A stretch of DNA of 64,000 bases from Candidatus Gastranaerophilales bacterium (GTDB lineage Bacteria; Cyanobacteriota; Vampirovibrionia; Gastranaerophilales; CAJFVJ01). The stretch is from positions 66,437-130,436 of the forward strand of contig CALUSR010000001.1 of the NCBI GenBank assembly GCA_944323485.1, in the 5' to 3' direction. Below, one piece after another: positions 12,247 through 36,688 of this stretch (the first letter of the stretch is position 1; every line of letters starts with the position of its first letter). A program made the position numbers and the translations under genes. Under the pieces are notes generated by a model. It was not told where the DNA came from and did not search any database. It saw only the letters and a program-made list of their open reading frames with translations.

Positions 12247-12712
12247 TGTTATCAAATAATTTATACGCCTCATCAGGACTGTCTATGCCTCTGACTTTTT
12301 TCTCCATAGGGCAAAGATTATCGCCGGCTCTATTTTTAATATTATCAACAACTTTATCTGCTCTGTATTTGACATGATGCTTTTTGAAAACCTCAACAGC
12401 TGGCTTTGAAATTAAAGGAGTATAAACATATTTTGCCCCGCCGTAAACAAACAAAAGTGCAGCCGCTTTTCCTATAACCTTATCGCCTGCATAAGCTCTC
12501 TCAAAATCCTTATTCCTGACATAATCAACCAGCGGTTTTATCCCTCTGCCGTCATAAACTTCTGTCTTTCCTTCTTTTATGACAACAAGTGAATGTTCTG
12601 AAAGCTGTTCTCTCAAAATATCAATATCTTCTTTCGCCATGCCTGCATACGCAAAAGCTGACGACAAAATAACAGTAAATATAACAGCGGCAAAAAAGTT
12701 TAATATTTTCAT
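12233..12712 (-). CDS. DUF1893-family protein with N-terminal signal/anchor
   Basis: 159 aa. ...GDKVIGKAAALLFVYGGAKYVY...NRAGDNLCPMEKKV matches my recollection of the DUF1893 (TM1506-like) family. Confidence 0.5.
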   Translation of the reverse strand: MKILNFFAAVIFTVILSSAFAYAGMAKEDIDILREQLSEHSLVVIKEGKTEVYDGRGIKPLVDYVRNKDFERAYAGDKVIGKAAALLFVYGGAKYVYTPLISKPAVEVFKKHHVKYRADKVVDNIKNRAGDNLCPMEKKVRGIDSPDEAYKLFDNIIPQ

Positions 12713-12803
12713 AACCTGCCCTCTTAAGCTTGTTAATATTATAATTGCCGAGAAAAAATATTTCTACTACAATTTAGGTACAAAAACGCAGGACGTTCTA
12801 ATT

Positions 12804-15725
12804 ATGTTTTTCTACTCTGATTTGCATATCCACTCAAAATACTCAAGGGCAACAAGCAAAAGCTGTAATCTCGAAGAACTTGCGTTGTGGGCACAGAAAA
12901 AAGGGCTTACCCTGATATCAACAGGAGATTTCACCCATCCGGCATGGTTTGAAGAAATAAAAGAAAAATTGATACCGGCAGAATCTGGCGTCTTCAAACT
13001 CAGACCGGATATAGAAAAACATCTTTTTCAAAATCCGTCGCCTGTCAGATTTCTTCTCTCTGTCGAAATTTCAACAATATACAAAAAATGGGATAAAACA
13101 AGAAAAGTCCACCATGTTGTTTTTATGCCGGATTTGAAAGCAGCGGAAATCTTCAGACAAAAACTCTCGGCAATCGGCAACATCAAATCTGACGGACGTC
13201 CTATCCTCGGGCTTGATTCCCGTGATTTACTCGAGATTGCGCTTGAATCAGGAGAAAACTCTTTTCTGATACCTGCCCATATCTGGACACCATGGTTTTC
13301 CGCCCTCGGTTCTAAATCAGGCTTTGACTCAATTGAAGACTGCTACGGTGATTTAGCAAGCCACATATTCGCCGTCGAAACAGGTCTTTCATCAGATCCT
13401 GAAATGAACTGGAGAGTTTCTTCACTTGATAAATACAGACTTGTATCAAACTCTGACGCCCACTCTCCGTCAAAACTCGCAAGAGAAGCAACTGTTTTCA
13501 ATACGGAACCTGACTATATGAGCATTATGAATGCACTGAAAACAGGCGACGGTTATGTCGGCACAGTCGAATTTTTCCCTGAAGAAGGAAAATACCACGA
13601 AGACGGACACCGAAAATGCAACGTGTGCCTTTCTCCTGAAGAAACAGTCAAGCTGAATGGCATATGTCCCGTGTGTCACAAACCAGTGACTATAGGTGTC
13701 ATGCATAGAGTTAACGAACTTACGGACAGGAGGGAAAAATCCGTCATTCCTCCAAAAACAGCAGGCAAAGTATTCAGCCTTGTCCCTCTGCCTGAAATTC
13801 TCTCTGAAATTATGCAGGTCGGCGTATCAAGCAAATCAGTCACATACGAATACGAAAATCTTATTCAAAAACTCGGGTCAGAACTTTCAATCCTGAGAGA
13901 AATCCCGATTGATGACATATCAAAAGCGTACTCACCCCTGCTTGGTGAGGGTATCTCAAGGCTGAGAGCAGGCAAAGTAATCAAACACCCGGGATACGAC
14001 GGTGAATACGGTGTCATAAGACTTTTTAAACCTGACGAACTTGCAAGAAAAAATTTTATAAACCTAAAATTGAATATAAACATCCCTGCCCAAAAGACAA
14101 CAGAAACACCATCTTTAAAGAAAATTGATTTTAAAAAAGATATCACAATACCTTTAAAAAAACAGGAGCAAACAAATTTCCACGGCTCTCTTGATGAAGC
14201 ACAGGAACACGCAATCAAAAATGAGAATAACCAGCTTATTATCACAGCAGGACCTGGGTCTGGAAAAACAACAGTCCTGACAAGGCGTATCGCATATCTT
14301 ATATCTCAAAAAAATGTTTCTCCTGAAAGTTGTCTTGCCATCACCTTCACCAAAAAAGCAGCCCAAGAAATGAGAGAACGGCTGGAAAAACTTCTTCCAG
14401 AACATTTTGATAAAATAAACATCCACACATTCCATTCTTTATGCTTTTCAATCCTGCAACAACACTCAAAACAGGCAGGGCTGGACAAGGATTTCAGAGT
14501 TATAAGCGAGCAGGAAAAAAAACTGCTCGATAAAGAATACCAAAAAGACAAAATGCTCGTATTCGACGACCTTATTTCTCTAACTCTAAAATTATTCGAA
14601 CAAAATCCCTCAATCAAAGAATCTTATCAAAAACTCTTTGAATTTGTTTCAGTTGACGAATATCAGGATATCGATGAAAATCAGTATAAGCTTATTAAGC
14701 TTCTTGTTCCCCCTGATGGGAATATCTGCGCAATAGGCGACCCAAATCAAGCAATCTACGGTTTTAGAGGCGGCGATGCAAAATTTTTCAATAACTTCGC
14801 AGAAGATTATCCAAAAGCAAAAATAATCAACCTCAAAAACAACTACCGCTCCGCTGCTAATATTATCAATGCTTCAAATCAAATGCTGAACTCTTATAAC
14901 ATCACCTCAAAATACGGAATTAATAACGAAAAAATCACAATCCACACAGCGCAAACAGATAAAGCCGAGGCTGAATTTGCAGTCAAAACGATAGAAGATA
15001 TGATAGGCGGCCACAGTTTTTTCTCACTCGACTCAAATAGAGCATCAGGAGAAGACTCAAATCTCTCGTTTTCTGATTTTGCAATCCTCTATAGAACCTC
15101 ATCCCAAATAGCTCCGGTTGAAGAAGCACTCAAAAGATCGGGAATGCCTTATGCAAAACTATCAAATAATATGCTCTGCGAAAATAAACATATACAAACG
15201 CTCATCAAAAAATTGACATCAAACATCGAAATAACAGAACAACTGAAATTGTTCAAACAGGAATTTTCTGACAAAATAGAAGACTATATCTGGGAGTACC
15301 TCTCATCACTCGCTTCAAACTATAACTCAAAAGACGAATTCATCCATGAATTATCCCTTCTCTCAGAAATTGACCTCCTCGATAAACGAGCAGACAGAAT
15401 TGCCCTGCTGACACTGCATGCATCAAAGGGGCTCGAGTTTGAATGTGTGTTTATAATAGGACTTGAAGAGGAGATTGTTCCTTTTTATCTGGTCGACACA
15501 CAGCACGACATTGAAGAAGAAAAACGTTTGTTATACGTAGGAATGACAAGAGCAAAACAAAAACTCTTCCTCACAAGAGCCGAAAAACGACTCTGGCGGG
15601 GCAAACTGCGGCACCTCGCACCTTCTCCGTTTCTGAACAAAATAGAAGAAAATCTTCTTAATCTTACAAAATACGAAAAAACTTTCTACGAAAAAGACAG
15701 CTCAAACCAGCTCTCATTATTCTGA
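12804..15725 (+). CDS. endonuclease Q-like PHP domain fused to a UvrD/PcrA-type SF1 helicase
   Basis: Start set at the ATG at 12804 (MFFYSDLHIHSKYSRATS, PHP motif); the track ORF from 12579 overlaps the converging gene. Zn ribbon CNVC-x13-CPVC. Helicase motifs GPGSGKTT, TFTKKAAQEM, VDEYQD, GDPNQAIYGFRG, NYRS, LTLHASKGLEF and VGMTRAK. Confidence 0.8.
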   Translation: MFFYSDLHIHSKYSRATSKSCNLEELALWAQKKGLTLISTGDFTHPAWFEEIKEKLIPAESGVFKLRPDIEKHLFQNPSPVRFLLSVEISTIYKKWDKTRKVHHVVFMPDLKAAEIFRQKLSAIGNIKSDGRPILGLDSRDLLEIALESGENSFLIPAHIWTPWFSALGSKSGFDSIEDCYGDLASHIFAVETGLSSDPEMNWRVSSLDKYRLVSNSDAHSPSKLAREATVFNTEPDYMSIMNALKTGDGYVGTVEFFPEEGKYHEDGHRKCNVCLSPEETVKLNGICPVCHKPVTIGVMHRVNELTDRREKSVIPPKTAGKVFSLVPLPEILSEIMQVGVSSKSVTYEYENLIQKLGSELSILREIPIDDISKAYSPLLGEGISRLRAGKVIKHPGYDGEYGVIRLFKPDELARKNFINLKLNINIPAQKTTETPSLKKIDFKKDITIPLKKQEQTNFHGSLDEAQEHAIKNENNQLIITAGPGSGKTTVLTRRIAYLISQKNVSPESCLAITFTKKAAQEMRERLEKLLPEHFDKINIHTFHSLCFSILQQHSKQAGLDKDFRVISEQEKKLLDKEYQKDKMLVFDDLISLTLKLFEQNPSIKESYQKLFEFVSVDEYQDIDENQYKLIKLLVPPDGNICAIGDPNQAIYGFRGGDAKFFNNFAEDYPKAKIINLKNNYRSAANIINASNQMLNSYNITSKYGINNEKITIHTAQTDKAEAEFAVKTIEDMIGGHSFFSLDSNRASGEDSNLSFSDFAILYRTSSQIAPVEEALKRSGMPYAKLSNNMLCENKHIQTLIKKLTSNIEITEQLKLFKQEFSDKIEDYIWEYLSSLASNYNSKDEFIHELSLLSEIDLLDKRADRIALLTLHASKGLEFECVFIIGLEEEIVPFYLVDTQHDIEEEKRLLYVGMTRAKQKLFLTRAEKRLWRGKLRHLAPSPFLNKIEENLLNLTKYEKTFYEKDSSNQLSLF

Positions 15726-18710: not shown

Positions 18711-19220
18711 TTAAAAACAACCGTATAAACTTTTATACTCATCAACAACAGTATCGTTAATATCTGCAAAAATAATTTTATCAAAGCAGTCATCATGTGA
18801 AATAAACTCTTGAACTACACCTGATGCAATTTTACAGGCTTTATCAACGGGAAATCCGTAAACTCCGCATGAAACAGCAGGAAAAGCAATTGTTTTGATG
18901 TTATACTTTTTTGCCAGTTCAAGAGCTGTCTTATAACAGGATTTCAGAAGTTCACACTCATTTTTTCCCCCGCCGTACCAAACAGGACCGACTGTGTGGA
19001 TTACATATTTTGCCTGCAAATTATAACCCTTTGTAATCTTTGACTGCCCCGTTTCACACCCTCCAAGAGTTCTGCACTCTTCAACAAGCTTTCTGCCGGC
19101 AGCACGGTGAATTGCTCCGTCAACTCCTCCGCCGCCGAGAAGAGTCCTATTTGCCGCATTGACAATTGCATCAACCTGCAGCTTTGTAATATCACATTTT
19201 AAAATTTCTATTTCAGTCAT
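18711..19220 (-). CDS. macro domain protein (O-acetyl-ADP-ribose deacetylase/YmdB-like)
   Basis: 169 aa. [25 protein letters not shown] and VIHTVGP are typical macro-domain motifs. Confidence 0.85.
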
Positions 19221-19317: not shown

Positions 19318-21999
19318 ATGAATACAAAAAACTCTGACGTTAAAATAAGAAATTCAATTAAAGAATTTGTCGAATACTGGAAAGATAAAGGCTACGAAAA
19401 AGGCGAAAGCCAAAAGTTCTGGCTTCAACTCTTGAGAGATGTCTTATGTATCGAACATCCGGAACAGTTCATTTCTTTTGAGGATAAAGTTCTCCTCGAC
19501 CATACAAGTTTTATTGACGCTTATATCCCTTCTACAAAAGTCTTAATTGAACAAAAAAGCTCTGATAAAGATTTAAATAAGGCTATAAAACAATCTGACG
19601 GCAGTTACCTGAACCCGTTTCAACAGGCAAAAAGATATATATCAGAACTTCCGCTTTCACAACACCCCAGATGGGTGGTAACATGCAATTTCCAAAAATT
19701 TCGTGTCTATGATATGGAACGCCCGAACGGTGAACCTCAGGAAATCTTATTGAAAGATTTGGAAAAAGAGTACTACAGACTCTCCTTTCTTGTAAACAGC
19801 GGAAGCGAACACCTGAAAAAAGAAATGGAAGTATCAATACAGGCAGGCAATATCGTCGGACTTCTTTATGATGCACTTTTGAATCAATATATTGATAAAA
19901 CAAGCGAAAAAACTCTCAAAAGTTTGAACATTCTCTGCGTCAGACTCGTTTTTTGTCTGTATGCGGAAGATGCCGGAATATTCCCGAAACATAACCAGTT
20001 TCTTGATTACCTCTCTCTCTTTGAAACAAACAGGATGAGAAAAGCCCTAATCGAACTGTTCGAAGTGCTAAACACAAAACCTGAAGAAAGAGACCCTTAT
20101 CTGGAACAGGAACTTGCTGCATTCCCCTACGTAAACGGCGGATTGTTTGCTGATGAACACATCGAAATCCCGAATTTCACGGACAAAATTCGAGATTTGC
20201 TCCTGAATAAAGCCAGCGCCGATTTTGACTGGTCAGAAATAAGCCCTACAATTTTCGGAGCGGTTTTTGAAAGTACCCTGAATCCTGAAACGAGAAGAAA
20301 AGGAGGAATGCACTACACCTCAATCGAAAATATACACAAAGTCATTGACCCGCTCTTTATGGATGAGCTCACTTCCGAATTTGAAGAAATCAAAAACTCC
20401 CCCCATGGAAAACTTCGGGATAAAAAACTTACAAGCTTTCAGGACAAACTTGCCTCATTAAATTTTCTTGACCCTGCCTGCGGCAGCGGGAATTTTTTGA
20501 CCGAAACTTATATTTCTCTGCGTAAACTCGAAAACGAAATTTTGTTCGAACTGCAAAAAGGTCAAATAACAATAGGACTTGTTACAAATCCCATAAAAGT
20601 TTCTATCTCCCAATTTTTCGGCATTGAGCTTAATGACTTTGCCGTAACTGTCGCCAAAACAGCTCTCTGGATTGCAGAATCCCAGATGATGAAGAAAACT
20701 GAAGACATTGTCCATATGGATTTGGATTTTCTGCCGCTAAAAACCTACGCTAATATTGTTGAATGTAATGCTTTGCGAATAAATTGGGAAGATGTCATTC
20801 CGAAAGACAAACTCAACTACATCATGGGCAACCCGCCGTTTGTGGGGTATTCTTTACAAACAAAAGAACAAAAAGAAGATATTATCTCAATTTATGTTGA
20901 TGAAAATGGCAAATCTTACAAAACTTCAGGTAAAATAGACTATGTTGCAGGCTGGTATTTTAAATCTTCAGAACTGATGCAAAACTCAAATATAAAAACA
21001 GCGCTTGTTTCAACAAACTCTATTACTCAGGGAGAGCAGGTTGCAGGTGTTTGGAAACCGTTGTTTGACAGATTTAATATCCATATTGATTTTGCACACA
21101 GAACTTTTAGATGGGATAGTGAATCAAATTCAAAAGCTCATGTCCATTGCGTGATTGTAGGTTTTAGCTGCACACCAAACAGAAATAAAAGAAAATTGTA
21201 TACAAATGAACGCATGCAGCTTGTTGATAATATTAATGCATATTTGATTGATGCACCGAATGTTTTTATAGAAAGCAAAAATCAACCGATATGTAATGTT
21301 CCCAAAATGACAACAGGCAACCGTCCTGCTGACGGAGGTCATCTTATAATAGAAGCCGAAGATTATGAGGAATTTATAAAAAAAGAGCCAAAAGCAAAAC
21401 AGTATATTAAACGCCTAACCGGAGCATTAGAGTTTATAAACAACAAACCTCGTTATTGTTTATGGCTTGTGGGAATAACTCCAAACGAATTAAGAGCAAT
21501 GCCAGAAGTTCTAAAAAGAGTCGAAGCATGTAAAGAAGACAGACTAAATGGAGCCGAGGACAGACAAAAACTGGCAGCTACTCCCTGGTTGTTCAGAGAG
21601 ACTAATTGTCCGAAATCATATATTATAGTTCCGGCAACATCTTCAGAAAATAGAAAATATATTCCTATGGGATTTCTAGATAATAATACAATAGCCACAA
21701 ATGCTGCAATTATCATACCAAATGCAGATAAATATTATTTTGGAATTTTGGAATCAAACGTACACATGGCATGGACAAAAGCTGTATGTGGCAGATTAAA
21801 GAGCGATTACCGTTATTCAAAAGATATTGTTTACAACAACTTTCCATGGTGCACCCCGACAGATGAGCAAAAAGCAAAAATCGAAAAAACTGCACAGGGA
21901 ATTTTGGACGCACGTGCCTTATACCCTGATTGCTCGCTTGCTGATTTGTATGATGAACTCACAATGCCTCCTGAACTCAGAAAAGCACATCAAGTGTAA
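19318..21999 (+). pseudogene. MmeI-family type IIL/IIG restriction-modification enzyme, 5' portion; C-terminal 44 codons displaced by an insertion
   Basis: N-terminal PD-(D/E)xK (FIDAYIPSTKVLIEQK), SAM motif LDPACGSGNFL and catalytic GNPPFVG. The frame reads ...ELRKAHQ, then V-stop inside foreign DNA. The in-frame continuation ENDKAVMEAYGF... is at 36692 onwards. Confidence 0.8.
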
Positions 22000-22043
22000 A
22001 GTGACACCAAATTTGAGAAAAAGTGACAGGGGAGTTTGAGAAA
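21998..22043 (+). repeat. tandem sub-terminal repeats (putative transposase binding sites), left end
   Basis: AAGTGACACCAAATTTGAGAAA is followed directly by AAGTGACAGGGGAGTTTGAGAAA. The shared parts are AAGTGACA and TTTGAGAAA. Confidence 0.5.
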
Positions 22044-22094
22044 AATAATACCCTTATATGTATTTGCTCATCCATAATTTATTTAATTTGTTTG

Positions 22095-22103
22095 TGCTAC
22101 AAT
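22095..22103 (+). promoter_or_regulatory. candidate extended -10 promoter element for the cargo operon
   Basis: TGCTACAAT (TGnTAnAAT) lies about 20 nt upstream of the AAGGAG SD and the ATG at 22124. Confidence 0.3.
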
Positions 22104-22123
22104 CTTAAAAAAGGAGTTAATCA

Positions 22124-22711
22124 ATGAAGTTAAATTCAGTAGATATTATTCTTTTACTTTTGTATAGCCCAGGTTACACTGACATGATTAACGAACCGAT
22201 AGATGGGCGAACAAAAATTACTAAAATGTTGTTTTTATTTGAAAAAGAGTTAGCTAAAAAGTTTAAATTAGATAAATTAACGGGAAATGAAGATATTTTT
22301 CGATTTACAGCATGGAACTTCGGTCCTATGTCAACAACGATATTTAAAAATTTAGATTTTTTAAAAAACATTGGCTTTGTAGAAAGCACTTATGCGACTT
22401 CTTATAGTGTTACCGCAGAAGAAGTAAGTGAATATAATCATTATTGCAATGAGTTAATTGAAAACGAAAATAATATAACAGAGTATAAAAGTGAGAAATT
22501 TTGTCTTACTGCAAAAGGAATAAAATTTATTGATGATAAGGGCAAATATCGTTTATTATCAGATAATCAAAAAAAATATTTAAGAGAGTTTAAATCTAAG
22601 CTCAATGGTGCAAATTTGAGAGATATTTTACGATATGTCTATATGACATATCCAAATTATACAGAAAAATCGATAATTAAAAATGAGGTGTTGGGAGATA
22701 ATGATGTCTGA
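22124..22711 (+). CDS. SocA/Panacea (YwgA-like, DUF4065) domain protein, candidate antitoxin
   Basis: 195 aa. GRTKITKMLFLFEKE...FRFTAWNFGPMSTTIFKNLDFL matches the Panacea pattern (K.QKLLYL...F.AW..GPV...vY). AAGGAG SD. Confidence 0.5.
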   Translation: MKLNSVDIILLLLYSPGYTDMINEPIDGRTKITKMLFLFEKELAKKFKLDKLTGNEDIFRFTAWNFGPMSTTIFKNLDFLKNIGFVESTYATSYSVTAEEVSEYNHYCNELIENENNITEYKSEKFCLTAKGIKFIDDKGKYRLLSDNQKKYLREFKSKLNGANLRDILRYVYMTYPNYTEKSIIKNEVLGDNDV

Positions 22712-23276
22712 TTTACAAATTGTGCCAGTAGTTTATCCTATAATTTCAGGGGTTCTTACTTTAGGAATATCATTATTCAGTTTATTTTCTCCATTTGTTG
22801 GTACAGAAATAGAGTTTACAAAAGATGCAAATTGGTATCTTTCCAAATTACAAGGTATGCGTATAGACAAATTAAAAAGGTTTATTTCTGAAGTTTTAAA
22901 TTTAAAAGTCGCAGAAGATAATTCCGAAGATAATAGAATGCCTTATGTTGTAGATATATATGAGTATTTCTCTACAGACATGGAAGAAATTATCCATCTT
23001 GAAAATAAAATAAAGCATTTTCTCAATAAATATAGAATAACAATGACTTCTTTTATGATTGTTCTATGGTTGTCCGTTACGTCAATTATTATTAGTTTAA
23101 TATTTAAACAAATAATAAAGTTAAATATTTTTTTAAATTACATTTTTTATTTTGCCATATTATTAGTATTAGTACAACTATTTAATATTATATATCTTCG
23201 TTACTTGTTTATAAATTCTCAAAATACGTATCAATTGCACATTTTTAGAGGAAAAGAAAAATGGAATATGAAATAG
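22701..23276 (+). CDS. three-TM membrane protein, candidate toxin/effector
   Basis: Start at the ATG at 22701 (GGGAGA SD), overlapping the upstream stop by 11 nt. One N-terminal TM (VVYPIISGVLTLGISLFSLF) and two C-terminal TMs (FMIVLWLSVTSIIISLIF; IFYFAILLVLVQLFNIIYL). Confidence 0.5.
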   Translation: MMSDLQIVPVVYPIISGVLTLGISLFSLFSPFVGTEIEFTKDANWYLSKLQGMRIDKLKRFISEVLNLKVAEDNSEDNRMPYVVDIYEYFSTDMEEIIHLENKIKHFLNKYRITMTSFMIVLWLSVTSIIISLIFKQIIKLNIFLNYIFYFAILLVLVQLFNIIYLRYLFINSQNTYQLHIFRGKEKWNMK

Positions 23277-23695
23277 ATATGGTTAATAAAGCAATTAAAT
23301 TTTATACTAATTTAGGATATAAAGTTTGTACAGAAGTTCCATTTTTACATCGTTCTATTGATTTAGTATATGAAAATAATGGGCAGTTAAATTCTGTTGA
23401 ATTTAAAAGAAGGGACTGGAAAAGAGCTTATGCACAAGCAAAAACACATATTTATGGATCAGATAAGGTTTATGTATGCATATTAAAGCCGTCAAAAGGT
23501 ATATCGCAAGAACTTAAAGATTATTTTAAGGATAGCCCGATAGGTCTATTAGTTTTTGATGAAACAAATACAAATTCTTTAATAGAAGAAATTTTTCCAG
23601 CTTCTAATGAACATAAAAAATGGAATATAGGTCAACAATGGTTAAAAAAAGCTTTTAACAAAAGACTCGAGGAGGAATTATGCCACAACAGTTAA
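23261..23695 (+). CDS. small PD-(D/E)xK nuclease-fold protein
   Basis: 144 aa. TEVPF...SIDLVYENNGQLNSVEFK gives an E...D-x13-E-x-K arrangement. GAGGAAAAG SD. 16-nt overlap with the upstream gene. Confidence 0.45.
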   Translation: MEYEIDMVNKAIKFYTNLGYKVCTEVPFLHRSIDLVYENNGQLNSVEFKRRDWKRAYAQAKTHIYGSDKVYVCILKPSKGISQELKDYFKDSPIGLLVFDETNTNSLIEEIFPASNEHKKWNIGQQWLKKAFNKRLEEELCHNS

Positions 23696-25065
23696 AGCAT
23701 TTAATGCGATTAGGTACTCATGGTGAAAAAAAATATTTTAAAGATTTTAAAGAATATTATGATGCGGTAATCATTAATGCAAGCATGATTGCTCATACTG
23801 TTAATTCAATGTCTACTTTTTTAGGTTGTGAACTTTCAAAACCATTTATCATTGATCCTCAAACATATGCGTTTCAATCATATACGCATCTATTACAACA
23901 AAGTAAAAACAAAAAAGATATTTCAGATGTTAAAGTAAAAAAATCTTTTTGCACTTTAATAGAAAACTATGGCGAAATGTTAAAAAAGATTATATTTGAT
24001 GAAAAACGCTCTATTAAAAGTTCTGATTTTAAGAATGATGATAACCAAAATTTGAAAGATTTTTGTAAAAATGTTTTAAAATATCAATTAGAAACAATCA
24101 CATCAGAAACACAAAATAATTCAGAATATAGTGAATATATTGAATATGAAATTGAAAATTGCAAAGATAATTTATCTTTAACTTTAGTCCCTGCTTTTTT
24201 AATTGCTCCATATTTTTATATGACACCTAATACATATTCGGATTGGATTGATATAAATATAGATGCTATAAATATTTCAAAAGAATTAAATTCCAAAGAT
24301 ATTGAAATTTATGCACAAATTGTAATTGATAAAGATATATTGTTAGATGATAGTAAAATTGAAGAATTGTGTGATAAATATAATTCATCAAGTGCGGAAG
24401 GATTTCTTATTTGGTTAGATAAATTTGATGAAAAAGAAGTAAGTGAAATTTATCTTGAAAAATTTATTAATTTTTTAAAATTATTGAAATGCAATGGAAA
24501 ACCGATATATCAAGTTTATGGTAGTTATTTTTCTATTGTTTTGACAAAAGATATACTTTCAGGAGTTTGTCATGGTATGGAATATGGTGAAAATAGAGAT
24601 GTTTATCCTGTAGGTGGCGGGATTCCTGTTTCGAAATTTTATTATCCAGCATTACACAAACGTTTATTATATCGTGATGCTTTAGATTTATTATTGAGAA
24701 ATGGATATTTGGAAGATTTAGAGGTTTACAATTCTAATGTATGTAATTGCAAAAATTGTCAAGAAATTATTAATACTCCAATTGAAGATTTTTCAAAATA
24801 TGGTGATGTTAATTCAACAACATTTAAACGAAAATCAGGCAATAGAGAATCTACTGTAACAATGGATTATCCAACTAATGATGCTAAAGATCTATGTTTA
24901 AGACATTATTTATACAATAAAATTACAGAATATAAATATGTTGAAAGCAAAAGTTATTCAGATTGTGCCGAAGATTTAATTCAATCATATAATAAGTACT
25001 ACGATTATTTAGGAGACAATGTTGATTATTTGAAGACTTGGCATAATATAATATTAAAAATTTAA
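23680..25065 (+). CDS. 461-aa unknown protein with tRNA-guanine transglycosylase/DpdA-like motifs (tentative)
   Basis: PFIIDPQTYAFQ (cf. TGT TDSGGFQ), GVCHGMEYGENRD (cf. GVDMFDCVMPTRN), CNCKNC (CxCxxC zinc motif) and a downstream LRHYL (cf. YLHHL). GAGGAGG SD. 16-nt overlap with the upstream gene. Confidence 0.3.
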   Translation: MPQQLKHLMRLGTHGEKKYFKDFKEYYDAVIINASMIAHTVNSMSTFLGCELSKPFIIDPQTYAFQSYTHLLQQSKNKKDISDVKVKKSFCTLIENYGEMLKKIIFDEKRSIKSSDFKNDDNQNLKDFCKNVLKYQLETITSETQNNSEYSEYIEYEIENCKDNLSLTLVPAFLIAPYFYMTPNTYSDWIDINIDAINISKELNSKDIEIYAQIVIDKDILLDDSKIEELCDKYNSSSAEGFLIWLDKFDEKEVSEIYLEKFINFLKLLKCNGKPIYQVYGSYFSIVLTKDILSGVCHGMEYGENRDVYPVGGGIPVSKFYYPALHKRLLYRDALDLLLRNGYLEDLEVYNSNVCNCKNCQEIINTPIEDFSKYGDVNSTTFKRKSGNRESTVTMDYPTNDAKDLCLRHYLYNKITEYKYVESKSYSDCAEDLIQSYNKYYDYLGDNVDYLKTWHNIILKI

Positions 25066-25068
25066 AGT

Positions 25069-26229
25069 ATGATGAAAAAAAATAAAAAATTAAGAGTATT
25101 TGAAGCTTTTGCAGGATATGGTAGTCAACGAATGGCTCTTCGTAATATTGGTATTCCTTTTGAAATAGTTGGAATTTCCGAAATTGAAGGAGAAGTTATT
25201 CGCTCTTATGCTGCTATTCATACTGATTTTTTAGAAAAAAGAAAAAATTTAGATAAATTTGTTAATCTTGATAAAGAAGAACTAATTGCTTTTTTAAAAA
25301 AACTCAATGTTCCGCTTGATTATAAAACATTTGTAAATAGAGCTCCTAAAATGAAAATAGAGCAGCTCAAAGAAATGTATCTTGCAAATAAATTAATTAA
25401 TAACTTTGGTGATATTACAAAAATTGATCCTGAAAAATTACCAGATTTTGATTTGTTTACATATTCTTTCCCTTGTCAAGATATCTCTGTTGCAGGATAC
25501 CAAAATGGTTTAAATGAAAGCTCCGGAACCAGATCTTCGTTGTTATGGGAATGTTGCAAAATCATAGAGGCAAAAAAACCTAGATATTTAATGATGGAAA
25601 ATGTTAAAAATCTAGTGGGCTGTAATCACAAAGCAAACTTTTTGAAGTTTTTAAGATATCTTGAAACTATTGGATATAAAAACAGATGGGCTGTTTTAAA
25701 TGCAAAAGATTATGGCACTCCACAACATCGAGAAAGAGTTTTTTGTATAAGTATTTTAGATGAAATGAATTATTTTAGATTTCCTAAGCCAGAACCCTTA
25801 ACAACAAAGTTAGCAGATATTTTGGAACAAGATGTTAATGAAAATTTCTACTTAAAAAATAATCAATTCATGGATTGCCCTATAGTACAAGATTATAGTT
25901 ATTGTATAGATTCCAACTATTGGAAAGGCTCTACATTAAGTAGTTTTTTAGAAAAACGCAGACGTCAATTAGTTACAGATAAAATTAATGAATATGGTGA
26001 ATATATGGTACGTCGTTTAACTCCGCATGAAGCTTGGAGATTAATGGGTGTATCTGATGAAGATTTTCACAAAGTTTCTTCTATAATGAGTAATACTAGT
26101 TTATATAAGCAGGCTGGAAATAGCATTGTAGTAAGTGTTTTAGAACGTATTTTTGCTAATTTATTTATTAATTACGATACAACTATACAAGACCCAGATT
26201 TTGCAGTACAATTACCTTTATTTAACTAA
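25069..26229 (+). CDS. DNA (cytosine-5)-methyltransferase
   Basis: Motifs FEAFAGYGS (I), SFPCQDIS (IV), ENVKNL (VI), QHRERVF (VIII) and GNSIVV (X). Confidence 0.9.
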   Translation: MMKKNKKLRVFEAFAGYGSQRMALRNIGIPFEIVGISEIEGEVIRSYAAIHTDFLEKRKNLDKFVNLDKEELIAFLKKLNVPLDYKTFVNRAPKMKIEQLKEMYLANKLINNFGDITKIDPEKLPDFDLFTYSFPCQDISVAGYQNGLNESSGTRSSLLWECCKIIEAKKPRYLMMENVKNLVGCNHKANFLKFLRYLETIGYKNRWAVLNAKDYGTPQHRERVFCISILDEMNYFRFPKPEPLTTKLADILEQDVNENFYLKNNQFMDCPIVQDYSYCIDSNYWKGSTLSSFLEKRRRQLVTDKINEYGEYMVRRLTPHEAWRLMGVSDEDFHKVSSIMSNTSLYKQAGNSIVVSVLERIFANLFINYDTTIQDPDFAVQLPLFN

Positions 26230-26248
26230 ATTTTAATAGAGGTATTTG

Positions 26249-27058
26249 ATGACTGCAAAAGAAGATATCATAGAATTGTTCCATAAAAACGTAAAAGGCA
26301 AAAGACCGAATGTCGAAGGAACAAATGAAAGACACGATGGTAGACAAGGACAATGGCTAGAACATCAATTTGGTATTCATTCTAATGACTATAATGCAGC
26401 TGACTTATGGGGATATGAGTTAAAAAATGAAACGACATCCAAAACAACATTTGGAGATTGGTCAGCAAATGAATATGTTTTTAATAATCCGGAATACCGT
26501 GATTATTTTGCAGGCACTAGTAAATTTGAAAAAAGAGAAGATTTTTTAAGAATATTTGGTAAACCTAATGAAGAAAAAGGTGGAAGATGTTCTTGGTCTG
26601 GTTCTCCTTGTCCCAAAATCAAATGCTTTAATGATTTTGGACAAAAACTTGTTATTGATAAGAATAAAGATATTTTGGCTATATACTCATACAGTCAAGA
26701 TAAAAGAATAAACAAAGCTGAAATAGTACCCAAAAGTTTGCAGTTAGAAGAATTAGTGTTAGCACGTTGGTACGGTGAAATATCACCAACTACTAAAAAA
26801 AGAGATAAATGTTTAAAAGCCAAATTAGAAGATAAATTTAATGATAAAGGTTGGTTTACATGTAAAACAGATGCGACGGGATGTTATTGTAAAATCTGTT
26901 TTGGCAAACCAATGAATTATGACGAATGGTTGGAGCTAGTAAAACAAGGAATTGTATTCTTTGATAGTGGTATGTATCAAGGCAACAAAAGACCTTATTC
27001 ACAGTGGCGTGCAAATAACAATTTTTGGGATAGTTTAATAGAAGAAACTTATGAATAA
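26249..27058 (+). CDS. type II restriction endonuclease (PD-(D/E)xK, MvaI/BcnI- or ScrFI-like)
   Basis: About 270 aa, located between two m5C MTase genes. GQWLEHQFGI...AADLWGYELK carries a D-x5-E-x-K catalytic motif similar to MvaI/BcnI-type enzymes. Confidence 0.55.
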   Translation: MTAKEDIIELFHKNVKGKRPNVEGTNERHDGRQGQWLEHQFGIHSNDYNAADLWGYELKNETTSKTTFGDWSANEYVFNNPEYRDYFAGTSKFEKREDFLRIFGKPNEEKGGRCSWSGSPCPKIKCFNDFGQKLVIDKNKDILAIYSYSQDKRINKAEIVPKSLQLEELVLARWYGEISPTTKKRDKCLKAKLEDKFNDKGWFTCKTDATGCYCKICFGKPMNYDEWLELVKQGIVFFDSGMYQGNKRPYSQWRANNNFWDSLIEETYE

Positions 27059-27131
27059 ATTGTGTCGATGTGATAAAAAAATATGCTTAATATAATAGCT
27101 TATTGCTCTTTCTTATGCTAATATTCAAGGT

Positions 27132-28079
27132 ATGAAATCAAAAAAGAAAGTAAAAATAATTGATTTGTTTGCAGGAATCGGTGGAATTAGACTTGGTTTT
27201 GAACAAGCTTTTAATGGAAATGTAGAATGCGTATTTACAAGCGAAATTGATAAATATGCGGTACAAACATACATTGAAAACTTTGGGTCAGACAATATTT
27301 ATGGAGATATAACTCAAATATCAGAAAAAGATGTTCCAGATCACGACATTTTACTTGCAGGGTTTCCTTGTCAACCATTTTCTCAAGCTGGTTTAAAAAA
27401 GGGATTTAATGACACTAGAGGAACATTATTTTTTGATATTGAAAGAATTTTACTTGAAAAGAAGCCAAAAGCTTTCTTGTTAGAAAATGTCAAACAGTTA
27501 AAAGGGCACGATAAGGGAAATACTTTAAAAGTTATACTTGAACACTTGCATAATGCAGGATATAAAACTTTTGTGAAAGTTCTTGCAGCGAAAGACTTTG
27601 GAGTTCCACAAAATCGTGAACGTATATATATTGTTGGATTCCTAGATAATAGTATAAATTTTGAATTTCCAGAACCAACATTAAAAGAAACTAAAGTTGG
27701 AAATATATTAGAAAATAATCCTGATGATAAATATACAATCTCTGATAAATTATGGGCTGGACATCAAAGAAGAAAATTAATGCATAAAGAAAAAGGGAAT
27801 GGTTTTGGATATGGATTATTTAATGCAAATAGTCCTTATACTAATACTATTTCAGCACGTTACTATAAGGATGGCAGTGAAATTTTAATAGAGCAAGATG
27901 GGAAAAACCCACGGAAATTAACCCCAAGAGAGGCCGCAAGATTGCAAGGATTCCCAGAAGAATATAAAATTACAGCTGTATCAGACAATCAATTATACAA
28001 ACAATTTGGTAATAGTGTATGTGTTCCAGTTATAGAAAAAATTGCTGAAAGAATAAAAGTTAATCTTGAGCAAGATTAG
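27132..28079 (+). CDS. DNA (cytosine-5)-methyltransferase (M.HhaI-like core)
   Basis: DLFAGIGG, GFPCQPFSQAG, TRGTLFFDI, ENVKQL, QNRERIYIVG and QFGNSVCVPV. Confidence 0.9.
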   Translation: MKSKKKVKIIDLFAGIGGIRLGFEQAFNGNVECVFTSEIDKYAVQTYIENFGSDNIYGDITQISEKDVPDHDILLAGFPCQPFSQAGLKKGFNDTRGTLFFDIERILLEKKPKAFLLENVKQLKGHDKGNTLKVILEHLHNAGYKTFVKVLAAKDFGVPQNRERIYIVGFLDNSINFEFPEPTLKETKVGNILENNPDDKYTISDKLWAGHQRRKLMHKEKGNGFGYGLFNANSPYTNTISARYYKDGSEILIEQDGKNPRKLTPREAARLQGFPEEYKITAVSDNQLYKQFGNSVCVPVIEKIAERIKVNLEQD

Positions 28080-29739
28080 TTTTTATAAGTTTTTCACTAT
28101 CCACCTTAAATTCTTTTGGTAAGAAGTTCAAAAAACTTTTTACTGAATATATATTATTAATTAACCCTTTAAATTTATAGTTTTCGTCCAATATATAACC
28201 TGAAAATTCATCAATTAATTTATATACATAGCCTTTATATTTATCTTTATACAAAATACCTATTTTTTTAGGAATATTATGTTCTAGATAACATATAAAT
28301 AAAGGCGAGTTTTTTGTAACATTAAAACTTGGTTTAAGATTTAAATAATTAAATTTATTAGAATAATTACCATCTTTTTTTCTTTTGTATACAATTTCAG
28401 AAGTTAAAGCATCTGTAACATATACGAAACTCGTTTCAATTTTTTGAAAGCCAATACAAACTTTATTTAATTTACATTCATAACAAGCTAATGGATTTTG
28501 TTTTCTGAATTCACCATTACCATTGGTTCCATACCTTTGACACCATAATAATTCCATATATTCTCTTATATTTGTTTTATTTGCTTGACTAGTTAACCAT
28601 ATTAGCCGTTCTAATTTTCCTAAATTATTAAATTGGTTAAAAAAATCATCTTTATTATCTATACCAAGAGCAAATCTATAAAATGTATCAATCCAAGTAT
28701 CAATAGGTATGACATTTGAATTTGCAAAGCCCTGTTGTATGAAACACGCTACTACTTTTTCAGAACATCCCTTTATTCCTGCATTATAAAATTTTTCAAA
28801 AAATACTTTATTCCATAAATTATAATCTGTATTCATAATAGTCATGATTGACCATATAAAGAAACAAGCACGCCACGAAAATCGATTAAAAGCATCGATT
28901 AAAAGCTCAATTTGATATTTATCTCCATTATTAAAGTCTATATTTGTGTCTTTGACCCAAGGTACTAACTTACTTTTTGTAAATTTTTCTTTATTTTGTT
29001 CCCAAGCATGTGGAATAGCTTTAAAAACAATGTCATCTATTTTTACTATTTGTGTATAATCTAATTTCCAAACTTTATACATAGACTTATATAAAGTTTC
29101 AAATTTAGAAAATTTTGTAAAATTTTGTTCTCTTACATCTTTATATATAGGCAATAAATAAAATTCTAAAAAATTCCATTGAGGAATTTCTTTATTATCT
29201 ATAGAAATTTTTTCACCAAAAGTACTTAAAAAATTATAAAGCATGCGCATTTCACTTTGCCTGCCTGTTTTAGGGCTAAATGCTGCAACAAAACGAATTA
29301 TTGAATATATCTCCTCATAAAAACGTCCAAAAGGTAATATATTTCCATATATGTTTGAACAAATATCAAATAAACTTGATAAAAAAGATTTATATTTTTG
29401 TGGAGATGCATCTATTATGTCTTGTTTTGTAACAGGATCAGATATTCCTATTCTATTTTTTAATTCTGTTCTTACAATTTCCCTAAATTTTGAATTTTCA
29501 GAAGCATTCAAATTTATATTGCTATAAAATAGAAAAATTACATTACAGGTTCCATTATTTTTATATTTTTGAGCTTTCATAGTTACAGGAAAACCATATA
29601 TTCTGGTATTATCTATAATTGTATGTACATATACAATTGGAAATCCTGGTAAATCAGGATAAAATAATTCTATTTTTGGTAACCATTTGACAGGGACGTT
29701 GTCAATCTCTATTTCGCTTGAATATTTGATTTTTTCCAT
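28060..29739 (-). CDS. 559-aa protein with an HhH-GPD/FeS-cluster-loop DNA glycosylase-like domain
   Basis: AGIKGCSEKVVACFIQQGFANSNVIPIDTWIDTFYRFALGI parallels the EndoIII sequence LPGVGRKTANVVLNTAFG...VDTHIFRV. LLWCQRYG...NPLACYECKLNKVC parallels LHGRYTC...PRCGSCIIEDLC. It converges on and overlaps the second MTase gene by 20 nt. Confidence 0.4.
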   Translation of the reverse strand: MEKIKYSSEIEIDNVPVKWLPKIELFYPDLPGFPIVYVHTIIDNTRIYGFPVTMKAQKYKNNGTCNVIFLFYSNINLNASENSKFREIVRTELKNRIGISDPVTKQDIIDASPQKYKSFLSSLFDICSNIYGNILPFGRFYEEIYSIIRFVAAFSPKTGRQSEMRMLYNFLSTFGEKISIDNKEIPQWNFLEFYLLPIYKDVREQNFTKFSKFETLYKSMYKVWKLDYTQIVKIDDIVFKAIPHAWEQNKEKFTKSKLVPWVKDTNIDFNNGDKYQIELLIDAFNRFSWRACFFIWSIMTIMNTDYNLWNKVFFEKFYNAGIKGCSEKVVACFIQQGFANSNVIPIDTWIDTFYRFALGIDNKDDFFNQFNNLGKLERLIWLTSQANKTNIREYMELLWCQRYGTNGNGEFRKQNPLACYECKLNKVCIGFQKIETSFVYVTDALTSEIVYKRKKDGNYSNKFNYLNLKPSFNVTKNSPLFICYLEHNIPKKIGILYKDKYKGYVYKLIDEFSGYILDENYKFKGLINNIYSVKSFLNFLPKEFKVDSEKLIKTNLAQD

Positions 29740-29790
29740 AATAGAATTCTACCATAAATTTTTAGTATAATAATTTTGGGGAGATTTCTT

Positions 29791-30135
29791 ATGGATATTG
29801 AATTTTTAAAAGAAAAAACAGTACAATTCAGAGATGCAAGAGATTGGAAGCAATTCCATACCCCTAAAAATCTAGCAATGGCATTATCTGTTGAAGCCTC
29901 AGAATTAGTTGAATTATTTTTGTGGGATGACAATACCAGTTCTTTTAGTATGACAAGAACTAAAAATGAACAACTGCAAGAAGAAATGGCAGATGTATTA
30001 ATATATCTTTTATCAATGTCGGATATTCTTGATATAGATTTATCTAAAGCCGTATTAGACAAATTAGAAAAAAATAATAAAAAATATCCTGTTGAAAAAT
30101 CAAAAGGATCTTGTAAAAAATATACAGAACTATAA
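29791..30135 (+). CDS. MazG-like nucleoside triphosphate pyrophosphohydrolase
   Basis: The ATG at 29791 has a GGGGAG SD. FRDARDWKQFHTPKNLAMALSVEASELVELF and EEMADVLIYL are typical MazG/dCTPase-like motifs. Confidence 0.75.
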   Translation: MDIEFLKEKTVQFRDARDWKQFHTPKNLAMALSVEASELVELFLWDDNTSSFSMTRTKNEQLQEEMADVLIYLLSMSDILDIDLSKAVLDKLEKNNKKYPVEKSKGSCKKYTEL

Positions 30136-30288
30136 TGATGTTTAAATATATTTTGATTTTGAGTAATGAATTACCATCCGAAAAAAGAATTAGACTGAAT
30201 AAGTGTGAAAAATATCGGATTAAAAAAGTTATTTAAATAGTATTCAAAATAAAATTATGTTTTAATGATACGTTTTACATGTAATCTC

Positions 30289-30316
30289 TTGATATTTATG
30301 TGCTTGAGAGTAATAT
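30289..30316 (+). promoter_or_regulatory. candidate sigma70-type promoter
   Basis: TTGATA, a 16-nt spacer, then TAATAT, upstream of the small-ORF cluster. Confidence 0.3.
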
Positions 30317-30335
30317 ATGTCATTGCCGATAAGAG

Positions 30336-30560
30336 GTGGCAATGATTGAGTTAGGCAAAAAATATAAACTTAAAAAGATTAAAGATTTTAGAAACTCTGA
30401 TAATGCATATTTCAAAGTAATTAGTTTATACAACTTTGACACTGTAATCTGCGAAAACGATTACGGAGAAAGATTTGTATTTATGAAAGAGTTTTTAACT
30501 GATTCAAATATGCCTGATGAAACTTATTCAGATTTAATGCTTGAAAGGAAAGAATCATGA
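30336..30560 (+). CDS. hypothetical small protein
   Basis: 74-aa ORF (GTG; alternative ATG at 30342). Its stop overlaps the next start (ATGA). Confidence 0.35.
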   Translation: MAMIELGKKYKLKKIKDFRNSDNAYFKVISLYNFDTVICENDYGERFVFMKEFLTDSNMPDETYSDLMLERKES

Positions 30561-30763
30561 CGAAAAAAGATTATGCACTTTACGGTACAAAGATTTTAAA
30601 CCACAAGACAGGTGAAATCGGATTATTAATTAAAACTTGGAAAAACAAGTATGCCGATGCAGAAATTGATTATGCAACTTGTGTTGATAAGCTCGGCAAA
30701 CGCTACAATATCAAACTTGATGAGATTTTACCGTTGGAGGAAACTGATGATTTTGAAAAATAA
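30557..30763 (+). CDS. hypothetical small protein
   Basis: 68-aa ORF, translationally coupled to the upstream ORF. Confidence 0.35.
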   Translation: MTKKDYALYGTKILNHKTGEIGLLIKTWKNKYADAEIDYATCVDKLGKRYNIKLDEILPLEETDDFEK

Positions 30764-30987
30764 ATTAACAAGAGAAACCATAGAAATAACTTATCCTGAA
30801 TTTAGAAAAAAGTTTGCAAAAGAGATAAGTACAGCTTTTGAAAGTTATTGAAGAACACAACTAAATAAATATTCTTATAATTTCAAAGATGATAATTCAA
30901 TGGAATACAACTTTTATTTTCAATTACAGTGGAATTTCAATCATTTTGGGAATTCTGTCTGGTATATAGAAAGGCTATGAGGGAAAA

Positions 30988-31194
30988 ATGAAAAAATATT
31001 ACTTAGAAGATAAAGAATTTCAATTTCTGTACGCTAAAAGCAAAAGAATTTACCATTCGTTGGTTGTAATAGATTATTTTTGCAGTAACTATAATGAAAT
31101 AGAAGAAATTGCGAATATATCGGGTATAATTAATTTCATAAAAAATGAAGCAGATATGCTATATTCAAAAATGATTAATTGTGAGCTTGATTAA
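30988..31194 (+). CDS. hypothetical small protein
   Basis: 68-aa ORF with a GAGGGAAAA SD. Confidence 0.35.
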   Translation: MKKYYLEDKEFQFLYAKSKRIYHSLVVIDYFCSNYNEIEEIANISGIINFIKNEADMLYSKMINCELD

Positions 31195-31319
31195 ACCCCG
31201 TTCAAAAAGTGTTCAAAAGGCTCTGTATTGAATTTATTTTAAAAATACAAGGGATTTTATTATAAAATAAAAATAGCCTGCTTAAATTTGGTTTAAACGA
31301 GGCTATTTGATAGAAGGTT

Positions 31320-31940
31320 TTATACATCTTGTAATCTTGATATCCTGCGAACTTCATATTCCGGAATTTGGTATTTTTCTCTTATGTCATCTTCGTAATT
31401 TATATAAAGGTCATAGAGTTTGTAGTTAAAAAATGATTTATCGCTATTTAGACAAGGTATTCTTTTTATGTCTTTATAACTTATTGCAGGAACATAAGAT
31501 TTATCTGAGCCTTGCAACATAAATTCCAAAAGGATATATCTGGTTATAACTTCCGCAAATTTTGGAGCTATCTCCATATATTCTTTAGCAACTGTTTTCA
31601 TTATTGATTTGATATAATCTTGAAACGCTTCTTGTTTCTTTACTCTGGCATTATATATATTTATTTGCAGGCTTTTCTTTTTATTATCTACACCTTTAAT
31701 TAAATCTTGATTAACCTCTATTTCTTCTTCAATTTTCTTTAGTCTTTTATTGATTTTAGAAACATCTTTCCCTTCTGCAAGTAAAGCAGGACGCTCCTCT
31801 TTTAGTTTTACGATTTCATCTTGCAGGGTTTTGATTTTATCTTGTGCTTGCTCCTTTCTTTCATCCATTGCTTTTATTTCGCCAAAAAATTTTCTGCATT
31901 CCGAAAATACTCTTTCCATTTTTTCCTTTGCATCTGTCAT
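31320..31940 (-). CDS. coiled-coil protein, unknown function (transposon module)
   Basis: 206 aa. The N-terminal half is a heptad-rich Lys/Glu coiled coil. It is the last gene of the minus-strand transposition block. Confidence 0.45.
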   Translation of the reverse strand: MTDAKEKMERVFSECRKFFGEIKAMDERKEQAQDKIKTLQDEIVKLKEERPALLAEGKDVSKINKRLKKIEEEIEVNQDLIKGVDNKKKSLQINIYNARVKKQEAFQDYIKSIMKTVAKEYMEIAPKFAEVITRYILLEFMLQGSDKSYVPAISYKDIKRIPCLNSDKSFFNYKLYDLYINYEDDIREKYQIPEYEVRRISRLQDV

Positions 31941-31955
31941 ATAAGCTCCTTTCTT

Positions 31956-32156
31956 TTACTTTAAATTTCTGTAATTAACACCAAGCTCATAAAATATGAA
32001 AATTTCAAAATCTCTGTTATATCTTTCTCCATTTATGAGTCTTGTAATGTATGACTCCGACATTTTTAACTTCTTAGATAAAGCTTTTTGAGTAATTCTT
32101 TTATATGCCAAGGCTCTTTTAATATTTTCCATTCTTTTCTTAAGAAACATCAGCAA
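31956..32156 (-). CDS. XRE/Ner-like helix-turn-helix protein
   Basis: 66 aa. ITQKALSKKLKMSESYITRLINGE HTH. Confidence 0.55.
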   Translation of the reverse strand: MLMFLKKRMENIKRALAYKRITQKALSKKLKMSESYITRLINGERYNRDFEIFIFYELGVNYRNLK

Positions 32157-32161
32157 ACTCC

Positions 32162-32836: not shown

Positions 32837-32848
32837 TTGTTCTCCTTT

Positions 32849-36676: not shown

Positions 36677-36688
36677 ATTAATTTATAT

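Follow-up and report, generated by a model that had tools for sequence, protein, structure and literature searches.

Antitoxins of the Panacea type neutralize unrelated toxins, including transmembrane (TM) toxins that depolarize membranes, and a sensor role has been suggested for them (Kurata et al., 2022, PMC8832971; Ernits et al., 2023, PMC10440598). Their signature, 'GPV', is critical for Panacea function (Kurata et al., 2022, PMC8832971). The survey of the two- (at most three-) gene PanA-PanT toxin-antitoxin (TA) loci left out conserved operons of more than three genes, and a SIR2 partner of PanA goes unmentioned in its main text (PMC8832971). Proteins with the fold of tRNA-guanine transglycosylase (TGT) also work in immunity, namely DpdA in the Dpd system (PMC10164549) and Cap10 in type IV CBASS defense (bioRxiv 10.1101/2025.04.06.647259). 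Here we analyzed four overlapping genes, A to D, in a 64,000-nt stretch of DNA from Candidatus Gastranaerophilales (the window: positions 66,437-130,436 of contig CALUSR010000001.1, assembly GCA_944323485.1; coordinates are window positions). These genes represent a cassette that is widespread and horizontally mobile, and we put at roughly 60% the probability that it serves as an anti-phage immune system of the abortive-infection type, with a toxin-antitoxin-like design. The four genes are as follows.

22124-22711, plus strand: gene A, 195 aa; resembles Panacea (SocA/DUF4065) proteins, its middle part being winged-helix-like; constant core.
22701-23276, plus strand: gene B, 191 aa; membrane protein with three predicted TM helices; variable slot.
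23261-23695, plus strand: gene C, 144 aa; predicted PD-(D/E)xK nuclease of the Hjc/XisH/AF1548 type; constant core.
23680-25065, plus strand: gene D, 461 aa; predicted TIM barrel with a putative C-terminal CxCxxC...H zinc site; signature core component.

A preliminary description of the window had presented 22124-25065 as four overlapping same-strand genes, each with its own Shine-Dalgarno sequence, and our open reading frame (ORF) and motif checks agree with it. The overlaps measure 11 nt for A and B (with the start of B taken as 22701; ATGs at 22683 and 22704 are alternative possible starts) and 16 nt each for B and C and for C and D, and purine-rich, Shine-Dalgarno-like motifs precede A (GGAG), B (GGGAG), C (AGGA) and D (GAGGAGG).

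To follow the cassette beyond the window, relatives of D were collected from 80 genome loci and 14 loci of metagenomic or viral origin, and iterated profiles built for each of the four proteins were run against the ORFs of these loci. The cassette recurred in 88 loci besides the window, spread over more than 15 bacterial phyla. Co-occurrence was counted over 89 sources, namely these loci (L001-L088) and the window, with L009 being the window's own genome at 100% identity. D was present in 89/89, C in 88/89 and A in 86/89 sources, and every absence fell at a contig end; A, C and D are found together wherever the contig extends far enough. B behaved differently: homologues were present in 44 of the 89 sources, each time between A and C, and six further loci carried in the same slot a divergent ORF of 159-195 aa with 2-4 TM segments. 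The remaining loci lacked B and carried a conserved SIR2-like gene of about 400 aa (37/89 sources, about 40% of loci), and not one source held both B and the SIR2-like gene. The cassette is a core of three genes, A, C and D, plus one swappable effector slot. The unit of four genes put forward in the preliminary description was thus upheld, and its own refuting condition, that the genes fail to co-occur elsewhere, did not apply; the refinement is that B lies outside the constant core. That B is replaced by the SIR2-like gene in about 40% of loci, and that the two never occur together, is the strongest argument for a function in defense.

Three fixed gene orders were observed: A-B-C-D, A-C-D-SIR2 and D-SIR2-A-C. 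In a neighbor-joining tree of D (computed without support values) these architectures formed coherent clades, with the B-type clade of the window as sister to the main SIR2-type clade. A second SIR2 clade lay elsewhere in the tree, which indicates that effectors have been exchanged more than once. The hosts comprise Melainabacteria, Bacillota, Alpha- and Gammaproteobacteria, Campylobacterota, Bdellovibrionota, Myxococcota, Planctomycetota, Verrucomicrobiota, Omnitrophota, Bacteroidota, Ignavibacteria, Acidobacteriota, Sumerlaeota, Kryptoniota and several lineages of Patescibacteria. Among them, Moorella mulderi DSM 14980 (L043) is a cultured source and carries the order A-C-D-SIR2, and a metagenome-assembled genome (MAG) of Bacteroides thetaiotaomicron carries D-SIR2-A-C. 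D was absent from INPHARED phages, PLSDB plasmids and complete Escherichia coli genomes. In IMG/VR it was found on only 4 of 2.9 million contigs, in the same architectures, and on this ground a phage function for the cassette was dropped. One MAG contig assigned to E. coli (L073) holds a D-SIR2-A-C cassette in which the SIR2 gene looks frameshifted (207 + 283 aa). None of 5,426 complete E. coli genomes contained a match to this cassette, and the assignment to E. coli is probably a binning artefact.

The two occupants of the effector slot were then compared. For B, no family was found in Pfam, NCBIfam, PHROGs or PADLOC. Hydropathy delimits three hydrophobic segments (aa ~7-32, ~114-135 and ~140-168), in line with the three TM helices described earlier; between the first two lies a soluble stretch of about 80 aa (34-112) that is acidic and helical. 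In the SIR2-like family, 22 of 32 members matched Pfam SIR2_2 and 16 of 32 matched SIR2, and PADLOC SIR2 models gave E-values down to 2e-9. The putative NAD-binding and catalytic motifs GAGFS, NWD and LHGS are kept in this family: G18-A19-G20, W164-D165 and H222-G223-S224 do not vary, and conservation at N163 is 90% or more. Its majority consensus furthermore contains CPNC...CPxC, a CxxC..CxxC zinc ribbon of which C230 is the sole invariant cysteine. The fourth slot is presumed to hold one of two unrelated toxic effectors, B or the SIR2-like protein, with B presumably an interchangeable membrane-disrupting effector outside the invariant core. M. mulderi DSM 14980 encodes, about 2 kb upstream of its A-C-D-SIR2 cassette, a second protein with a SIR2-like region (831 aa; positions 3443-5938 of L043; E=4e-73 to the effector profile).

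A resembles Panacea proteins at the level of its family. In Pfam, A of the window matched HTH_45 (8e-5) and SocA_Panacea (6e-3), both under the curated cut-off; against SocA_Panacea (PF13274) it scored 17.9 bits, with the cut-off at 25.7 bits. Among the members of the A family, 12 of 32 matched SocA_Panacea at E<=0.01, with a best value of 1.2e-7, and the pair G67-P68 was invariant across 32 A sequences (FGP[MFW]S). G67-P68 correspond to positions one and two of the 'GPV' signature (PMC8832971); only those two are kept, and the third residue is not valine. The matches of the family to SocA_Panacea, together with the invariant G-P, support the earlier assignment of A as a SocA/Panacea (YwgA-like) protein. 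In addition, residues 127-192 of A gave a partial match (9.7e-10) to the PADLOC candidate PDC-M19A, and searches of the PDB with the A sequence and profile returned nothing. A is presumed to be an adaptor or antitoxin-like regulator of the effector. Like PanA, it has the invariant G-P and is partnered by alternative, unrelated and presumably toxic proteins, one of them multi-TM, and like PanA-PanT loci the cassette consists of overlapping genes in a mobile module. In contrast to those two- (at most three-) gene loci, however, the Panacea-like protein is here tied to two more invariant genes, those of a predicted nuclease and a predicted zinc TIM barrel, and the conserved unit is an operon of four genes.

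C of the window had no match in Pfam, NCBIfam, PHROGs or PADLOC, and its assignment was made from a structure model and from conserved residues. The AlphaFold2 (AF2) model (pLDDT 94.4) shows an alpha-beta-beta-beta-alpha-beta core fold (helix 4-17, strands 21-28, 31-39 and 42-49, helix 53-65, strand 69-75), and its best Foldseek matches were XisH (2okf/2inb), AF1548 (1y88), Bax1, SfsA, lambda exonuclease and Hjc, at a query-normalized TM-score (TMq) of about 0.5. E4, D34, E47, K49 and Q59 were invariant in the 31-sequence alignment from the loci; in a second alignment of 50 sequences D34, E47, K49 and Q59 were again invariant and E4 was at least 90% conserved. Of the C family, 4 of 79 members carry a precomputed Pfam Hjc annotation (PF01870) and some have been named 'Holliday junction resolvase' by JGI; the C profile reached AF1548 and Hjc in the PDB only non-significantly (Hjc 1gef, E=1.4). 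From the model, the Foldseek matches and the E..D..ExK..Q motif we conclude that C is a predicted minimal PD-(D/E)xK nuclease with a complete putative active site, as its description as a 144-aa PD-(D/E)xK-fold protein had implied. C thus shares fold and motif with the Hjc/XisH/AF1548 nucleases, and some of its homologues are automatically annotated as Hjc, but unlike that of a housekeeping resolvase its gene is without exception accompanied by A and D in a mobile cassette.

D defines the cassette. A word-seeded search returned a family of at least 292 proteins, and an exhaustive search of 1.84 billion representatives returned 1,067 clusters (50% identity) at E<=1e-3, of which 535 reached E<=1e-30. 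The D sequence had no match in Pfam, NCBIfam, PHROGs or the PDB and only a non-significant one in PADLOC (E 0.009), and the D profile found nothing in the PDB at E<=10. Scanning 50 family members at E<=10 likewise brought up no library family for D. The AF2 model (pLDDT 91.9) is a (beta-alpha)8 TIM barrel, to which are added a helical insertion (aa ~62-170), the site C355-x-C357-x-x-C360...H409, a beta-hairpin and two long C-terminal helices. Across 50 sequences 26 residues are invariant, including D59-P60-x-T62, E304, R306 and G313-G314, and so are C355, C357, C360 and H409, which may form a metal site. The conserved putative catalytic residues of D and the E..D..ExK..Q motif of C suggest that both are probably active enzymes.

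All Foldseek matches of D were TIM barrels. E-values favored generic ones such as GH10 xylanases (TMq ~0.3), the best global structural match was archaeosine TGT (ArcTGT; TMq 0.47, for 1iq8_A, and 0.45, with other TIM barrels at or below 0.34), and DpdA (7ui4) ranked 45 among the matches. Against viral structures (BFVD) the best TMq was 0.36, to uncharacterized proteins. Profile alignment of D to TGT by hhalign, either over the zinc motif alone or as a long low-confidence alignment, placed CNCKNC of D on CHCAVC of Zymomonas mobilis TGT, and in the low-confidence alignment the strands stayed in register between the fifth one of the barrel and the zinc motif. For comparison, the catalytic aspartates of TGT are D102 and D280 (Z. 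mobilis numbering), and Cap10 has D248. The invariant D59 ends a barrel strand in 'IIDPxTHAFQ', which resembles TGT 'LTDSGGYQ', and in the strand before the zinc site D has H298, E301, E304 and R306 where TGT, in the same low-confidence alignment, has 'GIDMFDCV'. The profile comparison with TGT being non-significant, D was not assigned to the TGT family and is described only as a zinc TIM barrel of TGT-like architecture. The earlier suggestion of TGT/DpdA-like motifs was accordingly retained for the fold, with ArcTGT as best match, and for CxCxxC...H, but failed in every sequence-profile test. D is presumably an enzyme, or a sensor that binds bases or nucleic acids, of TGT-like architecture. 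In having a (beta-alpha)8 barrel followed by CxCxxC...H, D is like the TGT superfamily (TGT, ArcTGT, DpdA and Cap10), and like Cap10 and DpdA it is encoded in an immunity-type operon. It differs from the superfamily in its lack of significant sequence or profile similarity, in the residues H298/E301/E304/R306 that seem to stand at the region of the nucleophilic aspartate, in the large helical insertion and in having no PUA domain.

How such parts might act together can be outlined. C and D would be the nucleic-acid-facing part of the system, with D using the C-terminal face of its barrel, like TGT-fold enzymes, to bind a base or nucleotide or to act upon it, and C cutting DNA. A would keep the effector inactive, sense the trigger, or both, as has been proposed for Panacea-domain antitoxins, and infection would free the effector, with membrane damage in the B variant and NAD+ depletion in the SIR2 variant as the expected outcomes. 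A constant sensor core with mutually exclusive SIR2 (NADase-type) and membrane effectors is likewise seen in Thoeris, short pAgo/SPARSA, DSR and SIR2-HerA; however, the core of the cassette is unrelated to their TIR, Argonaute and HerA modules, and none of the PADLOC models of these systems matched A-D. A more specific and rather doubtful version is that D is an immune sensor derived from TGT, which flips out and recognizes or excises a non-canonical base of invading nucleic acid, or conjugates nucleobase and protein in the manner of Cap10, and passes the result to the Hjc-like nuclease so that the Panacea-held effector is freed. Speculatively, 7-deazaguanines installed by phages with DpdA could be such a trigger, and glycosylases that sense or excise modified bases of this kind were recently reported in defense (bioRxiv 10.1101/2025.10.29.685425). 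If true, abortive-infection immunity would gain a new class that senses modifications, founded on a family which Pfam, NCBIfam, PHROGs and PADLOC lack and which reaches over more than 15 phyla, Patescibacteria included.

Several points weigh against an immune function as proposed here. The cassette is known in this study from sequences and predicted structures alone, and its instances come nearly all from MAGs. The TM nature of B was judged by hydropathy only, individual SIR2 matches are weak, and the profile of the SIR2-like family found no sirtuin in the PDB. For D, Pfam TGT (PF01702) was matched by 0 of 50 members, even at E<=10, and hhalign gave the family a probability of 1.9% against Z. 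mobilis TGT and of 2.4% against a five-sequence TGT profile. The association with defense islands is descriptive, the counts having no matched background, and PADLOC v2.0.0 is a library of 2023, so that the system may still carry a name in newer resources. Finally, the cassette often lies beside integrases, and a pure role in addiction or stabilization would give the same genomic picture.

This last point leads to a possible, if doubtful, alternative, in which A and B, or A and the SIR2-like protein, form a PanA-PanT pair that stabilizes a mobile element while C and D are accessory DNA-processing genes. A is indeed Panacea-like and lies directly beside the effector in A-B-C-D and D-SIR2-A-C, and cassettes adjoin resolvase or integrase genes or, in the window, ride a transposon. 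However, C and D are conserved as strictly as A and more than any effector, and the effector is not adjacent to A in A-C-D-SIR2. The types of element also differ (Mu/TniB transposon, resolvase plus tyrosine integrase, serine recombinases), which argues against C and D belonging to one particular mobility machinery. Furthermore, TA modules of this kind are increasingly shown to be defense systems (PMC10440598), and to that extent stabilization of an element and an immune function overlap. Chance neighbors or spurious ORFs can be set aside: at 25-28% GC long ORFs are less limited by stop codons in some frames, but homologues of all four genes in conserved order across phyla, together with models of C and D at pLDDT above 91, refute that explanation.

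Two further explanations turn on what D might do. It is unlikely that the cassette modifies and restricts DNA (or RNA) in the way of Dpd, with D exchanging a base of the host's nucleic acid (as DpdA inserts preQ0), C restricting unmodified DNA and A serving as a DNA-binding regulator. The TGT-like fold and zinc site of D, the predicted nuclease C and the adjacent restriction-modification genes would fit such a scheme, but D is not a sequence member of TGT/DpdA, and alternating TM and SIR2 effectors characterize abortive infection rather than modification-restriction systems. Unlike Dpd and type IV CBASS, moreover, A-D come without QueC-like, CD-NTase, DpdB or DpdC partners: neither DpdB/DpdC with helicases nor Cap9 (QueC-like) with a CD-NTase was detected by PADLOC in A-D or their neighbors, QueC or CD-NTase was not recurrent among 148 flanking ORFs, and QueC/D/E and FolE were not among the families matched by at least two of them. 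The cassette also occurs in Patescibacteria, which have a minimal metabolism. Less likely still is a scheme in which D makes a small molecule (a free or modified base or nucleoside) that activates B or the SIR2-like protein, as in CBASS, Thoeris and Pycsar. Interchangeable TM and SIR2 effectors are typical of signaling systems, and the barrel face of D is conserved in an enzyme-like manner, but no SAVED, SLOG, STING, CARF or Macro domain was found in B or the SIR2-like protein with Pfam and PADLOC, and signal production would leave the invariant Panacea-like protein and the nuclease without a role. An abortive-infection-type immune system built on A, C and D is the reading we prefer.

No named system in the libraries consulted fits the cassette. 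With PADLOC-DB v2.0.0, B and C had no match, D reached only 0.009 and A matched the candidate in part; there was no model for B, C or D in Pfam 2025 or NCBIfam 2026 and none in PHROGs, and a full-text literature search found no description of this gene combination. The view that the four genes correspond to no named system was thereby upheld, and none of them matched a characterized non-defense family. That the components are of the kinds found in anti-phage systems likewise held, given the swappable TM and SIR2 effectors and the methylase, restriction and recombinase genes in the flanks. The proposed kind of defense, modular and of abortive-infection or toxin-antitoxin-like design, is a known one; its signature family, D, was previously unclassified. 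If confirmed, the cassette would be a new multi-gene immune system whose signature family spans about 1,000 clusters at 50% identity and is without a Pfam, NCBIfam, PHROGs or PADLOC model. It would be the third independent use of a TGT-type fold in defense, after DpdA and Cap10, and would give the Panacea domain a role in a larger sensor-effector machine, beyond two-gene toxin-antitoxin pairs. The swap of a membrane protein and a SIR2 effector on one core would then make a clean natural experiment. The cassette is also present in gut Melainabacteria, a Bacteroides MAG and bacteria of the candidate phyla radiation, the immune repertoires of which are poorly known, and cultured or tractable sources, including M. 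mulderi DSM 14980 and the B. thetaiotaomicron MAG version, make the hypothesis directly testable.

In the window, a 14,692-bp insertion (21995-36686) carries A-D at its left end as cargo; its features are these.

21989-21994: left direct repeat ATCAAG, a putative target-site duplication; the element starts at 21995 (TGTAAAGTGACACC...).
32162-36248: transposition module, which also encodes an integrase-SAM-like protein (224 aa) and a divergent HTH_3 repressor.
32849-33574, minus strand: TniB-like/AAA_22 ATPase, 241 aa.
33519-35498, minus strand: Mu-type (Mu-transposase_C) DDE transposase, 659 aa.
36687-36692: right direct repeat ATCAAG; the element ends at 36686.

The GC content is 25-32% inside the element (~22,000-37,000) and 37-39% outside, and a tRNA-Ala gene lies just outside it. 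The insertion splits an MmeI-type IIG gene (19318-21999): its N-terminal 893 codons run to 21999 and its last 44 codons lie at 36689-36823, and the joined protein aligns to MmeI (PDB 5hr4_C) without a break across the junction. The interrupted gene, the ATCAAG repeats and the transposase genes together bear out the earlier claim that A-D are cargo of a transposon. A transposon that imports other defense genes has thus inactivated an MmeI-type defense gene, or has at least cut off its C-terminus. The left end of the element starts with TGT and carries two GTGACA-N-TTTGAGAAAAA repeats, which may be binding sites of the transposase; apart from these and the 6-bp direct repeat, no convincing terminal inverted repeats of the island were found. 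For want of a convincing inverted repeat, the element is classed no more narrowly than as a transposon of the Mu/Tn552/Tn7 type.

Other genes lie within the island and upstream of it. A 559-aa ORF on the minus strand (28060-29739) is convergent with the second methyltransferase gene of the module listed below and overlaps its 3' end by 20 nt; searches of Pfam, PADLOC, NCBIfam, PHROGs and PDB sequences left this further cargo gene without a match. Next in the island comes a gene for a MazG-like nucleotide pyrophosphohydrolase (29776-30135; Pfam MazG-like, 5e-18). Upstream of the MmeI-type gene lie a gene for a 1048-aa UvrD-type helicase with an N-terminal extension of about 530 aa that has no Pfam match (12579-15725) and one for a stand-alone Macro-domain protein (18711-19220). 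The chromosomal site may already be rich in defense genes.

Directly downstream of D is a module in which PADLOC detected MTase_II and REase_II, that is, type II restriction-modification (25069-28079). It consists of three genes.

25069-26229, plus strand: 5-methylcytosine (m5C) methyltransferase; Pfam DNA_methylase (3e-73 and 3e-109 for the two methyltransferases of the module).
26246-27058, plus strand: LlaMI-family endonuclease; Pfam RE_LlaMI, 2e-72.
27132-28079, plus strand: second m5C methyltransferase; Pfam DNA_methylase.

This methyltransferase-restriction-methyltransferase (M-R-M) arrangement presumably resembles that of ScrFI-type systems. The stop codon of D (TAA, ending at 25065) lies 3 nt ahead of the first methyltransferase ATG at 25069, exactly as noted earlier; no obvious Shine-Dalgarno-like motif precedes that gene and no terminator-like site lies between the two. 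A-D are probably co-transcribed with the module; in a scan for promoters and terminators the counts equaled the shuffled expectation in AT-rich DNA, so the scan speaks neither for nor against co-transcription. The suggested link to a type II restriction-modification system held for this genome alone. No other locus has the module downstream of D, apart from L009 of the same genome, and relatives with a 74-84% identical D lie at the end of a resolvase and tyrosine-integrase element without restriction-modification genes. The adjacency is thus local to this genome, the restriction-modification system was rejected as a part of the cassette, and the cassette is presumably functionally independent of its M-R-M neighbor.

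The wider neighborhoods were surveyed by comparing 148 randomly sampled flanking ORFs with Pfam. DNA methylases, restriction enzymes and recombinases dominated, the families matched most often being N6/N4 DNA methylases (6 members), m5C methylases (5), Resolvase (5), Phage_integrase (4), Recombinase (4), RE_HpaII (3), HNH_2 (3) and the AbiEii-type AAA_21 (2). Furthermore, recombinases lay within 8 kb in 4/4 further neighborhood sets with precomputed Pfam annotation. Flanks with restriction-modification and recombinase genes are the usual signature of defense islands on mobile elements. A Beta-lactamase2-family gene lies just past the island and a tRNA-Ala/tRNA-Ile pair in the window (38467-39612, minus strand), and another directly follows the 74%-identical cassette copy carried by the resolvase and integrase element of two relatives (L001/L003, 9632-10552). 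With this gene beside the cassette-bearing elements in the window and in relatives alike, the site may be a chromosomal hot spot for integration that different mobile elements share.

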